This document shows positions 4,508 to 28,290 of a stretch of 30,667 nt of DNA, in pieces. Position 1 is the first letter of the stretch. Every line of letters begins with the position of its first letter. Source of the stretch: a virus (taxonomy: Duplodnaviria; Caudoviricetes); the IMG/VR virus record IMGVR_UViG_3300032232_000969, positions 1 through 30,667 of that record; one strand, given 5' to 3'. The notes beneath the pieces were generated by a model. The model made no database searches and had not been told where the DNA came from. It worked only from the letters and a program-made list of their open reading frames with translations. Position numbers and translations under genes: made by a program.

Positions 4508-4594
4508 TTATACAGCACCATTAAGACCCTCGGTGGAAATAGGTTCACCGAGGCTGGCGAAGTTTGCGAAAGACGTAACGGAGAATAGGTGGAC

Positions 4595-6001
4595 ATGGCG
4601 ATTGAAAATGCGATTTTTGGGAACCTGGTATACAATGAAGAATACGCTCGCAAGTGCATACCCTTTCTCAAAGAGGAATATTTCTCTACGCAGGATCAAA
4701 AAGCGTTATTCAGACTCATTAAAGGATATGTAGACAAGTATAATGCATTTCCTACTAAGGAAGTTATGGCAATTGATCTGGCCAATACAGAGGGCATCAG
4801 CGAAGATACCTTTAAGAATTGTAAGGAATTGATCAATGGTCTCACACATGACAAAAGTACCAAAATCGATTGGCTCTTGGAACAAACAGAAAAATTCTGT
4901 CAGGACAAGGCGATCTATAATGCGATTATGGCGTCAATCGGGATTCTTGATGATAGCTCTGGTAAAACCTCGAAAGGGGCAATACCGCAAATCCTTACCG
5001 ATGCGCTTGCAGTATCCTTTGACACACACATTGGTCATGATTTCCTTGAAGATGCGGACTCACGCTATGACTTCTACCACACCAAGGAAGAAAGAATCCC
5101 CTTCGACCTCGACTTCTTTAACAAGATCACGCAAGGTGGGTTGCCTAAGAAAACGCTGAACATTGCTCTGGCAGGTACTGGTGTCGGTAAATCGCTGTTC
5201 ATGTGTCATTGTGCCGCTGCTAATCTAATCAAGGGATATAATGTATTGTATATCACACTTGAAATGGCAGAAGAGCGTATTGCCGAGCGTATCGATGCTA
5301 ATCTTCTTGACGTGACTCTTGATGAGCTTAAGTTGTTGCCTAAAGATGCATATGATAAGAAGATAGCACGTGTCAGAGGCAAAACCAATCATAAGCTTAT
5401 CGTCAAGGAATATCCTACAGCATGTGCTGGCAGTGCCAACTTCCGTCATCTATTGAATGAGTTGAAGATCAAGAAAAACTTTATGCCCGATGTTATCTAC
5501 ATCGATTACCTGAATATCTGTATGTCATCGAGGATTAAACATGGAGCCAACGTCAATTCTTATACCCTTATCAAAGCAATCGCAGAAGAGCTACGAGGGT
5601 TGGCAGTTGAATTCAATGTACCTATCATCTCCGCAACTCAGACAACTCGAAGCGGATATTCGAACAGCGACGTGGGATTGGAAGATACATCAGAATCCTT
5701 TGGACTCCCAGCCACAGCTGATTTTATGTTTGCACTCATTAAGCAGTCCGAGGAGTTGGCGGACCTCAATCAAATTGTGGTTAAGCAGCTTAAGAATAGA
5801 TACGGCGATCCCAATCTTAATTCTCGGTTTATCGTTGGGGTGGATCGCAGCAAGATGCGTCTCTATGATGTAGAAAATTCGGCTCAGGAAGATCTACTTG
5901 ATGGTCCTGTGATGGATAATACTAAATTTGGTAATGAAGACAACGAGCGTAGTAAACCTAAGAGTAAGTTTGATAGAGCTAAGTTTGCGGGGTTCAAGTG
6001 A
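4595..6001 (+). CDS. 41: T4-like replicative DnaB-family helicase (gp41)
   Basis: Walker A AGTGVGKS, YITLEMAEE, IYIDYLNI, SATQTTRSG, SESFGLPATAD and KQLKNRY. Start is ATG 4595 or GTG 4589. Confidence 0.96.
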   Translation: MAIENAIFGNLVYNEEYARKCIPFLKEEYFSTQDQKALFRLIKGYVDKYNAFPTKEVMAIDLANTEGISEDTFKNCKELINGLTHDKSTKIDWLLEQTEKFCQDKAIYNAIMASIGILDDSSGKTSKGAIPQILTDALAVSFDTHIGHDFLEDADSRYDFYHTKEERIPFDLDFFNKITQGGLPKKTLNIALAGTGVGKSLFMCHCAAANLIKGYNVLYITLEMAEERIAERIDANLLDVTLDELKLLPKDAYDKKIARVRGKTNHKLIVKEYPTACAGSANFRHLLNELKIKKNFMPDVIYIDYLNICMSSRIKHGANVNSYTLIKAIAEELRGLAVEFNVPIISATQTTRSGYSNSDVGLEDTSESFGLPATADFMFALIKQSEELADLNQIVVKQLKNRYGDPNLNSRFIVGVDRSKMRLYDVENSAQEDLLDGPVMDNTKFGNEDNERSKPKSKFDRAKFAGFK

Positions 6002-6228
6002 CAGAAAAAGTAATTAAAGGTTTCGTGATTGTTCCTCCTGGCGATCTGGCCTGGAAGTTAGGATATTGGACATTTGCTCCTACTCCTGAGGAAGCATGGT
6101 ATAGAAAGCTTGGTCATGAGGTAGCCGATATCGATCGTCCTACTCGCATTCAGGCTTGGCACGACAGAGGCCATAGGCTCAGAGAAGCAACTTTAACTAT
6201 TCATGAGGGTGAAGATGAGCAAGCGTAA
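5998..6228 (+). CDS. Hypothetical protein
   Basis: GTGA start/stop overlap with gp41; 76 aa. Confidence 0.6.
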   Translation: MTEKVIKGFVIVPPGDLAWKLGYWTFAPTPEEAWYRKLGHEVADIDRPTRIQAWHDRGHRLREATLTIHEGEDEQA

Positions 6229-6439
6229 GATGAATTACAATCTGGTTGAAGGCAAGGATAAGAGCATGTATGATGTTCTTGAAGAAACAACTAATCAGGT
6301 TATCAAGTCATTTCCTGGTGATAAGTTCCTTGAAGCACGTTCATTGATGCGTCATTTGAATTTAGGTGGTGGATTTGATGGATTTACTCCAACTTTTTTG
6401 CTAAAAAACTTCAAATCTTATATAAATAAAACTACGTAA
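6215..6439 (+). CDS. Hypothetical protein (HLNLGGGFDGFTP motif)
   Basis: ATG 6215 follows a GAGGG RBS and overlaps the previous ORF end. Confidence 0.65.
   Translation: MSKRKMNYNLVEGKDKSMYDVLEETTNQVIKSFPGDKFLEARSLMRHLNLGGGFDGFTPTFLLKNFKSYINKTT
6421..6428 (+). promoter_or_regulatory. T4-type late promoter
   Basis: Exact TATAAATA (gp55 consensus) immediately before a structured non-coding region. Confidence 0.75.
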
Positions 6440-6570
6440 TGAACATGTATGCGCAGCTATAGCTGTTGCAGAGGCACGAGTCCAATAGGAGACTAAGGAA
6501 TAGTTGAGAGCAAACGGTGGGGTTCCGCTCAACCATGTCTACGTTAAGGAGAGCTTCGGCTCTCCTTTTT
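6434..6570 (+). ncRNA. Candidate structured ncRNA of about 135 nt, family unassigned
   Basis: Bounded by a late promoter and an intrinsic terminator. It has a closing stem, three internal hairpins and a possible pseudoknot (see findings), and no credible ORF. Confidence 0.55.
6546..6570 (+). terminator. Rho-independent terminator
   Basis: AAGGAGAGC-TTCG-GCTCTCCTT stem with a UUCG tetraloop, followed by a T run. Confidence 0.9.
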
Positions 6571-6584
6571 CATTTACCGAGTAT

Positions 6585-6592
6585 TATAAATA
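6585..6592 (+). promoter_or_regulatory. T4-type late promoter
   Basis: TATAAATA directly after the terminator and about 25 nt before ATG 6618. Confidence 0.8.
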
Positions 6593-6617
6593 TAATAAAA
6601 CTTCTCAGGGAATAATT

Positions 6618-7280
6618 ATGATTAAATTCAGCCAATTCGTCGTTGAAGATAAAACCAAGCCAGAAGGTATGCATTTATTTGACATGGATGAAACATTGTT
6701 CGCTCATGATCACCACAAACTCAGAGTGCATGTTACTGATCCTTCTGGTAATAGAGTTAGAACTCTAACCAATCAAGAGTTCAACACTCATCAGCTTCCC
6801 CCAGGTCATAAGTATGACTTCAGCGAGTTTAGAAGCTCAGATATATTTACACAGTCAGCAAAGCCAATTCGTAAAATGATCGCAAAGTTGAAAGCGATTC
6901 AAAAAAATGGTGGCAAGACAGCTATTCTTACTGCCAGATCAGATATGGACGATAAAAATAAGTTTGCTCGTCATATGGGCAAATATGGTATTGATATTGA
7001 TAAGACGCATGTATATAGAGCTGGTAATCTTGAAGGCAAGCCAGCCGATACTAAAGCAATGGTTGTTAGAGATTTAATGAGTAAAAATGGACACAAAAAG
7101 TTACATTTATATGATGATTCTATGGATAATTTAAATGGGTTTCTTAAACTAAAGAAAGATTATCCAGAAACAGAATTTCATGCGCATCATGTTGCACATG
7201 ATTCTAAAACCGGAGATGTTAAAGTTACAACTACATCATTGAAAGAAAAGCCTTCAGATAAAGAAAAGGTAAAGAAATAA
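6618..7280 (+). CDS. HAD-superfamily phosphatase with a capsid-targeting-like N-terminus
   Basis: HAD motif I LFDMDETLF, motif II ILTARS, a Lys in ADTKA and motif IV LYDDS; N-terminus MIKFSQFVVE. Starting at ATG 6618 avoids the terminator. Confidence 0.8.
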   Translation: MIKFSQFVVEDKTKPEGMHLFDMDETLFAHDHHKLRVHVTDPSGNRVRTLTNQEFNTHQLPPGHKYDFSEFRSSDIFTQSAKPIRKMIAKLKAIQKNGGKTAILTARSDMDDKNKFARHMGKYGIDIDKTHVYRAGNLEGKPADTKAMVVRDLMSKNGHKKLHLYDDSMDNLNGFLKLKKDYPETEFHAHHVAHDSKTGDVKVTTTSLKEKPSDKEKVKK

Positions 7281-20936: not shown

Positions 20937-21374
20937 ATGAAGAAATTAGCGTTCATATTCTTTCTAATTTCTTCTGTTTCTTTTGCTGGTGAAATTCAAT
21001 TTGGATTCAAGAGTCCTGCGTTCAGTGGCAATGGATACTCTTCTCATGTTCTTACTATTGAAAACTTAGAAGCAACAAGAAAGCAGAAGATATTCGACGA
21101 TAGAAAATCAGCTGCTGAAAAGGCTGCTTCTGATGCTAAGAATACAAATCTTGTTAAGTTTCTTAATAACTTAGAGAGCCGTATATACGCTACTATTTCT
21201 CAAAACATTGCTTCTGAGTTATTCAAGGACAATGGTAATACATCAGGTTCGTTTGATATCCAAGGTAATAATCTACAATGGGTATCAGATGGATCTACAA
21301 TAACATTAACTATTACTGATCCAGGTGGAAGTGTGACGCAAGTGGTTGTTCCCTATGGGAGTTTAGCATGGTAA
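20937..21374 (+). CDS. csgF: CsgF-like curli assembly protein
   Basis: Signal peptide ending SFA; mature N-terminus GEIQFGFKSPAFSGNG resembles CsgF F.F.NP.FGG; C-terminal G.F...ITLTITD..G.VTQVVVP; adjacent to csgG. Confidence 0.8.
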   Translation: MKKLAFIFFLISSVSFAGEIQFGFKSPAFSGNGYSSHVLTIENLEATRKQKIFDDRKSAAEKAASDAKNTNLVKFLNNLESRIYATISQNIASELFKDNGNTSGSFDIQGNNLQWVSDGSTITLTITDPGGSVTQVVVPYGSLAW

Positions 21375-27651: not shown

Positions 27652-28005
27652 CTATTTGTGTTTGGCTGCTAACTCTTCGGCAGCTTTGACTTGTTTATCA
27701 GCAGCCTCTAATTCACGTCTCTGTGCTTTAGCGGCTGTTTCTACGTCATGGAGATGACGCTCTGATTCAATCTCTTTACCACGTAGCTGTAAAACAATAT
27801 TAATTTTTTGATTCAAACGGATTAAATCATTGTCTAACATGCGAATACGATCTATAAGTGCTATAAGTACAGTACTGGCTTCGCTTGTAACGGGTTTGAT
27901 TTCTTTAGTTGCCCATGTCCAAACATAATAAATCATATAACCCATACCGCCAGCGGCAACAATAGGAAACCCGTACTTATTGATTAATTCTGCAATTCCA
28001 CCCAT
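27652..28005 (-). CDS. Small membrane protein (single TM plus coiled coil), paralog of the neighbouring gene
   Basis: YGFPIVAAGGMGY TM segment, then ALIDRIRMLDNDLIRL. Confidence 0.75.
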   Translation of the reverse strand: MGGIAELINKYGFPIVAAGGMGYMIYYVWTWATKEIKPVTSEASTVLIALIDRIRMLDNDLIRLNQKINIVLQLRGKEIESERHLHDVETAAKAQRRELEAADKQVKAAEELAAKHK

Positions 28006-28008
28006 TTA

Positions 28009-28290
28009 TCAATCCCTTCTTGCGTCGTTTTTACCATCGGCGCGAGCGATACGATCTGTATCAGGTTTCACACCAAGTGCATTCGAAACCAATGTATCAA
28101 TTCTGATAACATCATGATTCATTGTTTTAACTCTATTATCCAAGGCAGTGATAATGCCCGACAAACCTTTGACAGAGCTCATAACACCAGCCAGAATAAA
28201 CTTCATAGTAAGAAACACAAAATAACCACCAGCACATGCTGCAGCAATTGGAAATCCTACTTCTGCGACTAATTTAAACCATTGATCCAT
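28009..28290 (-). CDS. Small membrane protein (single TM plus coiled coil)
   Basis: VGFPIAAACAGGY TM segment, then ALDNRVKTMNHDVIRI; AAGGTG RBS. Confidence 0.75.
   Translation of the reverse strand: MDQWFKLVAEVGFPIAAACAGGYFVFLTMKFILAGVMSSVKGLSGIITALDNRVKTMNHDVIRIDTLVSNALGVKPDTDRIARADGKNDARRD

Follow-up and report, generated by a model that had tools for sequence, protein, structure and literature searches.

The locus and its putative transcription unit

The sequence analyzed here, hereafter the window, is the IMG/VR virus record IMGVR_UViG_3300032232_000969, a stretch of 30,667 nucleotides (30.7 kb) from a T4-like myophage in which gp43, uvsX, gp41, primase, thymidylate synthase, and nrdA are annotated. 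Its closest cultured matches are distant: Stenotrophomonas phage DLP6 for gp41 (62%) and cyanophage S-SM2 for gp43 (50%). Between gp41, followed by two small open reading frames (ORFs), and a HAD-family gene (6618–7280) lies an element that an earlier note, made from the sequence alone, had proposed to be a discrete structured late RNA. The evidence below strongly supports a stand-alone structured late non-coding RNA at this place. Conservation, covariation, the promoter, and the terminator bear out that part of the proposal, while a ribozyme, an antitoxin mimic, or a base-pairing small RNA gained no evidence.

The element is preceded by TATAAATA, letters that we take to be a T4-type late promoter, and the same letters recur behind the terminator; both copies lie where the earlier note had seen them. 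The motif alone is not significant, since four copies, all on the plus strand, occur in the window against 2.5 expected. Across the relatives, TAAATA stands upstream in 157 of the 158 members with enough flanking sequence, against a background of 7.9% per 105 nucleotides (nt). A terminator-like hairpin with a T-run, in the window the UUCG terminator already noted, follows in 155/157 members, and a second TAAATA is found 30–170 nt downstream in 112/157. Six bases on from TAAATA, 84/110 members have an A, and we therefore place the transcript start at 6434. According to PMC2988020, a late TATA box precedes the start by about one turn, which agrees with this position. The unit thus has the make-up of a stand-alone T4-type late unit, with a TATA-box late promoter about one turn upstream and an intrinsic terminator downstream. 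The predicted RNA is 131–182 nt long among the members (median 148). Its late transcription would presumably depend on the sigma factor gp55, for which we provisionally take a sigma-70-region-2 protein encoded beside uvsY in the relative G006.

The statement that the element holds no credible ORF is correct for the interior, where only a 7-codon ATG ORF lies wholly inside, but not for the edge: the 3' end of the upstream 73-residue ORF (stop codon 6437–6439) overlaps the late promoter and reaches a few bases into the RNA. A TTG-started ORF (6504–7280) merely lengthens the next gene at its 5' end, as the relatives of that gene align only from ATG 6618 onward. The bulge between P4 and P5 measures 4, 5, 6, 7, 15, or 16 nt in the relatives, so any reading frame is broken there. 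The element is also more GC-rich than its surroundings, as had been noticed (48% versus 32% and 30% in the flanks). Coordinates are collected in Table 1.

Table 1 Features of the RNA locus in the window. P, paired region; J, junction strand; L, loop.
Feature	Position	Strand	Remarks
gp41 helicase, to which the RNA gene is anchored in position	4589..6001	+	at most 1.5 kb away in 70/78 RNA-selected loci
73-residue ORF, usual upstream neighbour	6218..6439	+	adjoins the RNA in 65/78 RNA-selected loci
T4-type late promoter TATAAATA	6421..6428	+	motif; within 3' end of the 73-residue ORF
Predicted transcript	6434..6572	+	about 138 nt with terminator; A6434 taken as start
P1, closing stem	6434-38/6540-44 (outer, variable), 6443-47/6534-38 (inner)	+	8/8 pairs change on both sides; 91.5% paired; model-fitted alignment
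P2, hairpin variable in sequence and length	6450-52/6468-70, 6454-57/6462-65 (6450..6470)	+	93.6% paired
J2/3, G-N-GG-C-(A/U)	6471..6476	+	first GG doublet 6473-74; G, G, G, C in 97–98/98 rows
P3, weak hairpin of variable length	6479..6494	+	54% paired in model alignment
J3/4, GGAA-N-(A/U)	6497..6502	+	second GG doublet 6497-98; GGAA in 98/98 rows and 72/72 protein-selected members
P4	6503-08/6528-33	+	100% paired
Bulge 5' of P5	6509-14	+	4–7 nt; hairpin of 15–16 nt in the inverted clade
P5, 3-bp stem	6515-17/6525-27	+	99.7% paired; 14 stem variants
L5, UGGGGUU	6518..6524	+	third and fourth GG doublets (6519-20, 6521-22); 69/72 protein-selected members
Intrinsic terminator, UUCG loop	6546..6572	+	hairpin 6546–6567 and T-run
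Second late promoter, for the downstream gene	6585..6592	+	TATAAATA again

Relatives and distribution

In total, 162 distinct members were parsed, all from uncultured T4-like phages and with one common layout: a TAAATA promoter, four helices around a junction, and a terminator. The model R1 was built from 77 of 108 distinct members. Protein-selected loci were fetched by their flanking proteins without any RNA motif, and further members came from pattern scans. R1 matches 70/81 viral and 56/80 metagenome loci fetched in this way, many of which are duplicates; the misses are distant homologs of the 73-residue ORF or truncated contigs. From 75 non-duplicate rows of the viral and metagenome loci, 72 distinct protein-selected members were obtained. 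Conversely, 80 RNA-selected loci were examined, of which two were chance matches and 78 true. In 15 of these 78, the RNA is inverted relative to gp41 and the 73-residue ORF, and the downstream gene differs between loci. The gp41 proteins of the carriers are 58–92% identical to that of the window. The conservation and covariation near gp41 that the earlier note had named as a check were both found in related phages.

Models R1 and R2 found the RNA in none of eight whole records of cultured T4-like phages (T4, S-SM2, Melnitz, DLP6, vB_OspM_OC, phiM12, HTVC008M, and Cr30); two weak model matches in cultured-phage records (E 0.17 and 0.85) both lack the core. A blastn search against 50,697 phage records returned nothing at E 1e-5, and at E ≤ 10 only the terminator or chance matches of 17–20 bases. 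A pattern scan of GTDB (185,579 prokaryote species) gave ten matches, nine of them chance. The single real one (L207, G012:C218) is a 1,756-bp contig in a Pseudobdellovibrionaceae metagenome-assembled genome that carries the RNA and a gp41-like ORF; it is likely a mis-binned phage fragment rather than evidence of a host. R2 was also run on 151 genomes sampled from the class to which a Roseomonas genome belongs, with 23 candidates scored per genome listed, and did not find the RNA there. Two loose pattern scans yielded mostly chance matches, with five real among the 100 searched of 121 in one and two distinct real of 120 in the other.

Two long carriers, G006 (173 kb, complete) and G007 (152 kb, 87% complete), were searched whole and annotated, and each contains one copy of the RNA with a confident match. 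G006 has 30 transfer RNA (tRNA) calls, an alphaproteobacterial-type two-piece transfer-messenger RNA (tmRNA), and CsgF/CsgG. This content points to proteobacterial hosts without fixing them, because Melnitz has such a two-piece tmRNA and infects OM43 (PMC9004378). The G006 loci (L346–L354) also include the permuted tmRNA and genes for a curlin repeat, DctP, an OmpA-like barrel, ferritin/Dps, a Bax1-inhibitor, peptide deformylase, and WYL_2 (Sm-like).

One sister clade (L069:3245-3345, L075:3215-3315, L080:3250-3350, L562:1045-1140, and L564:520-620) keeps the 73-residue ORF and lacks the RNA. At the same place, it has a different, long GC-rich hairpin of about 80 nt, which folds at −39 to −54 kcal/mol whichever strand is taken and whose outer arms resemble GCTGGA/TCCAGC. 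Behind it come repeats of AATCAA...CACTTAGC. The arms differ between members, and the feature may be another structured element or else a terminator/promoter array.

Secondary structure and covariation

The single-sequence fold of the window RNA is no better than chance (z −1.35; 19/200 shuffles as good), and its minimum free energy structure misses P3–P5. The structural case therefore rests on the relatives. In the layout that they share, P2, P3, and P4 meet in a four-way junction that is closed by P1, and P4 leads over a 5' bulge to the 3-bp P5 and a 7-nt loop. When 98 diverse members were aligned to the model, 23/24 pairs changed on both sides and 90.5% of cells paired, with a covariation score of 0.79; shuffles scored 0.24, and slid registers no more than 0.13. 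This alignment leans towards the model, and the P1 register in a 64-member test was chosen by pairing. P4 and the first P5 pair also covary on motif-anchored columns (z 8–17), and RNAalifold recovers P4 and P5 unaided. Among 64 de-duplicated members, the P2 hairpin is present in all, 61 of which beat shuffles at p ≤ 0.1. P3 is the weakest helix, folding in 60/64 and beating shuffles in only 31/64. The cells of P4 and P5 contain 25 G-U and no A-C pairs, so the plus strand is the folded strand. Taken together, the relatives show that P1, P2, P4, and P5 are conserved (P3 more weakly), as are the plus-strand sense, the flanking signals, and the independence from the downstream gene.

The pairings listed in the earlier note are all formally complementary, and four of its helices proved to be conserved: the closing stem (P1), CAGC/GCUG (the tip of P2), AGUC/GACU (P3), and GUUGAG/CUCAAC (P4). 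A fifth proposal, a pseudoknot between GGAAU and the loop GUUCC, is not supported, for it had overlooked the P5 stem, which competes for the same CC. Pattern scans for members with a changed P5 gave 35 distinct true members from 129 loci. The variants include CAG/CUG, UAG/CUA, CUG/CAG, CCG/CGG, CAC/GUG, CAU/AUG, and UAU/AUA, all with an unchanged GGAA. In the 26 rows of set A3 in which the CC is changed (two misaligned rows excluded), Watson-Crick pairing is kept by P5 in 24 and by the pseudoknot in none; the latter would survive as G-U in 22 and breaks in four. GGAA never co-changes with the CC, and the fifth pseudoknot pair is broken in 12/96. Since P5 co-changes and GGAA is fixed, the pseudoknot as drawn is not the conserved fold, and a 2-bp AA/UU contact between GGAA and the loop is possible. 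An H-type pseudoknot RNA of the ToxI-like or hepatitis delta virus (HDV)-like kind was rejected for the same want of covariation between GGAAU and GUUCC.

Helix sequences and lengths drift freely, and some members gain an extra hairpin, either within the bulge or 5' of the helices. L506, L510, L511, L526, L553, L554, L537, and L372 carry such a hairpin between the promoter and P1, and in the first five of them GGAAUA is changed to GGAUU-GGAAUU. In a divergent subtype (L017:2456-2576, L022:1720-1840, and L612), a purine-rich strand (GAGUAG) replaces P3, P4 has 5 bp, and the loop is UGGUGGUU.

An invariant unpaired core

The helices vary around short unpaired strands that hardly change. Fixed short unpaired strands among freely varying helices are typical of ligand-binding or catalytic RNAs. 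In the protein-selected members, J2/3 retains G-N-GG-C in 70/72 and has GGAA there in the other two. L5 is UGGUGGUU in 3/72 of them and in one further member elsewhere. The observed changes in L5 are U insertions only, and all four G are retained. The U lies between the second and third G (UGG-U-GGUU) in L017, L022, L612, and L530, and before the G run in L411 and L440. A quick gp41 tree of 144 columns, poorly resolved, puts L530 apart on a long, unsure branch.

The first G of J2/3 may take part in a sheared pair below P2. With this base set aside, the invariant unpaired G number eight and make up four doublets (6473–74, 6497–98, 6519–20, and 6521–22). All eight, the number that a two-tier RNA G-quadruplex uses, are conserved as four doublets in 72/72 protein-selected members. 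Where the central U is inserted, it divides GGGG into two GG doublets, and the four doublets together with this split suggest that the eight G may form a two-tier G-quartet or similar Hoogsteen core, in which L5 would dock on the junction strands. G-quartets of this kind, built among duplexes with long loops and non-consecutive guanines, are described for selected aptamers (PMC7962482).

A proposed partner-binding RNA and rival explanations

We judge the chances to be about even that the element is a free late RNA whose aptamer-like core binds one conserved partner, a protein or small molecule, in trans as a decoy or sponge. The unit would be transcribed late as a free RNA of 130–180 nt, and its four-helix fold would bring the G-rich, unvarying junction strands and loop together in a compact surface like that of an aptamer. 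This surface would bind one conserved protein or small nucleotide in trans and thereby act as a decoy or sponge. A more specific form, in which L5 docks on the junction strands, the eight G build a two-tier G-quartet within the four-way junction, and the free aptamer sponges a host nucleotide signal (an immune second messenger or alarmone) or decoys a defense protein late in infection, is tentative and, as a whole, rather doubtful. A single-copy RNA with a fixed, tertiary-looking core has been kept across carriers of such divergent gp41, with no cellular counterpart found, and such retention implies that it must serve a recurrent late-infection need in these phages.

Several points weigh against these readings. 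The late transcript and its ends are predictions from sequence comparison, and the partner is putative. The two loop doublets directly adjoin each other (GGGG) in most members, where a quartet would need a zero-nucleotide connection or non-contiguous stacking. L5 is nine base pairs off the junction, and its docking needs a back-bend at the bulge that is only presumed. The invariant G could equally serve base triples, metal sites, or catalysis. The pattern scans themselves impose some of the core invariance. The 72 protein-selected members alone escape this bias, and these are related to each other. Finally, the RNA is dispensable in related phages, because sister clades keep the same upstream ORF without it (11/81 and 24/80 loci unmatched, some of them truncated).

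A small self- or trans-cleaving or ligating ribozyme with the invariant junction as its active site is unlikely. It would account for some 18 near-invariant unpaired bases amid freely varying helices, and a four-way junction and a core of 110 nt would suit it. Against it, no ribozyme family matched at E up to 10, the unit's own promoter and terminator make self-processing unnecessary, and no substrate strand is apparent.

About as unlikely is the idea that the UGG(G/U) loop pairs with the 3' CCA of tRNA or tmRNA and shields tRNA ends late in infection. The P-loop of 23S ribosomal RNA (rRNA) and the T-box antiterminator both bind the 3' CCA of tRNA, and a 3-bp stem with a 7-nt UGGGG-- loop resembles Escherichia coli 23S GAC-UGGGGCG-GUC. 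The two long carriers, moreover, encode 30 and 22 tRNA calls and the two-piece tmRNA. The likeness comprises only five shared bases, however, and UGGGG occurs 13 times in E. coli rRNA; pairing of this kind would leave the GNGGC and GGAA strands unexplained, and T4 has tRNAs without the RNA. The 23S likeness (helix 80) is also limited in itself: the last two loop bases differ, the stem of the window RNA is free to change in sequence, its loop tolerates an added U, and no further resemblance to rRNA was found.

A small RNA that base-pairs through a seed in L5 (or GGAA) with messenger RNA of host or phage, or with the anti-Shine-Dalgarno sequence, seems quite unlikely. The exposed invariant loop and the terminator with its U-tail would fit, but the seed is of 7 nt and is split by the central U in some members, and two invariant strands buried in the junction would have no role.

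It is improbable that the element is a cis riboswitch or attenuator governing read-through into the downstream gene. Aptamer-like conservation stands directly 5' of an intrinsic terminator, and the T4-like phage Melnitz is reported to have riboswitches (PMC9004378). Yet a fresh late promoter follows in the 112/157 members counted above, the downstream gene varies, and in the 15 inverted loci the unit points towards the gp41 operon and has no gene that it could lead. The second promoter, the variable neighbor, and the inversion make a cis leader role in general unlikely on sequence grounds. Riboswitch identity was also rejected on position, as the element is not found, together with an expression platform, 5' of genes that share a function.

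It is very unlikely that the RNA and the neighboring 73-residue protein together make up a small ribonucleoprotein: the ORF adjoins the RNA in most RNA-selected loci, the inverted clade included, but each also occurs without the other, and the fold of the protein is only weakly YvyC/FlaG-like (E 0.074, TM 0.35). Least credible of all is a DNA-level or replication-linked element (an origin primer or single-strand DNA structure) kept strictly beside the helicase gene, since core-gene synteny accounts for that position, and the promoter and terminator bracket, the late rather than middle promoter type, and the free orientation speak against it.

Relation to known RNAs

In agreement with the earlier note, no family could be assigned. 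The Rfam 15 covariance models gave no match on the window at the gathering threshold, and at E ≤ 10 only four weak ones (14–22 bits), none over the core. No known self-cleaving ribozyme core was matched up to E 10. A tRNA, tmRNA, or tRNA-like identity was rejected (no ARAGORN call; variable P2 loop). Positions 6516–6526 are identical to bases 1–11 of E. coli tRNA-Tyr, and this mimicry is lost in members with a compensated P5. Likenesses to RNase P, group I, HDV-like, and cyclic di-GMP RNAs were rejected on comparison of motifs by eye and by Rfam.

Among the closest known systems, 23S helix 80 is treated above. The stable RNAs C and D of T4 (rnaC and rnaD; species 1 and 2) are also stand-alone genes for stable RNAs of 120–140 nt in a T4-like phage, with no assigned function. 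However, they share no sequence motif with the window RNA, R1 matches neither them nor any other part of T4, and they lie in the tRNA cluster, whereas the window RNA lies beside gp41 with its own promoter and terminator; homology was therefore rejected on sequence, structure, and position. Four-way-junction riboswitch aptamers of the SAM-I type and other junction aptamers likewise combine variable helices and short invariant junction strands with a downstream terminator. The window RNA differs from them in having no Rfam match and no fixed downstream gene, and in its second promoter after the terminator and its inverted clade. The in vitro-selected G-quadruplex/duplex aptamers Spinach, Mango-III, Sc1, and NOX-D20 have eight core guanines and whole duplexes within their loops (PMC7962482). 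They are artificial and structurally proven, whereas the quartet of the window RNA is predicted from four invariant GG doublets only.

A literature search at the level of listings and the openings of abstracts found no description of the window RNA, which is not in Rfam 15, and we regard it as a new family among the stand-alone phage structured RNAs. Fremin, Bhatt, and Kyrpides (2023; PMC10690425) list 8,495 covarying intergenic DNAVirus_n candidates from IMG/VR, the collection that holds these relatives. The RNA may be one of those candidates. The present analysis itself tested P5, the drawn pseudoknot, which it rejects, the clade with inverted orientation, and the core of four GG doublets. 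The small size, the covariation-backed fold, and natural variants for every helix make the RNA amenable to probing, screens, and structural work. If the quartet or sponge reading is true, it would be a natural counterpart of selected-aptamer folds and an RNA counterpart of protein anti-defense sponges.

The neighboring protein and other features of the window

The 73-residue protein has 145 relatives with an invariant FDG-x-TP-x-F motif and a fold of three strands and two helices. No Pfam match and no fold match at E ≤ 0.001 were obtained; FlaG appears among its ESM look-alikes (0.85–0.87), which serve as leads only. G007 has the RNA and no homolog of the ORF, and the fold likeness is only weak; the protein is therefore not an obligate partner of the RNA.

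Elsewhere in the window, a run of genes at 20937–26227 matches PHROGs of unassigned function (35372, 20175, 37870, and 35576) and may be the counterpart of the curli-pore module that is located after thyX in G006. Two small tandem genes at 27652–28290, both phrog_18771, are the only minus-strand genes annotated in the window.
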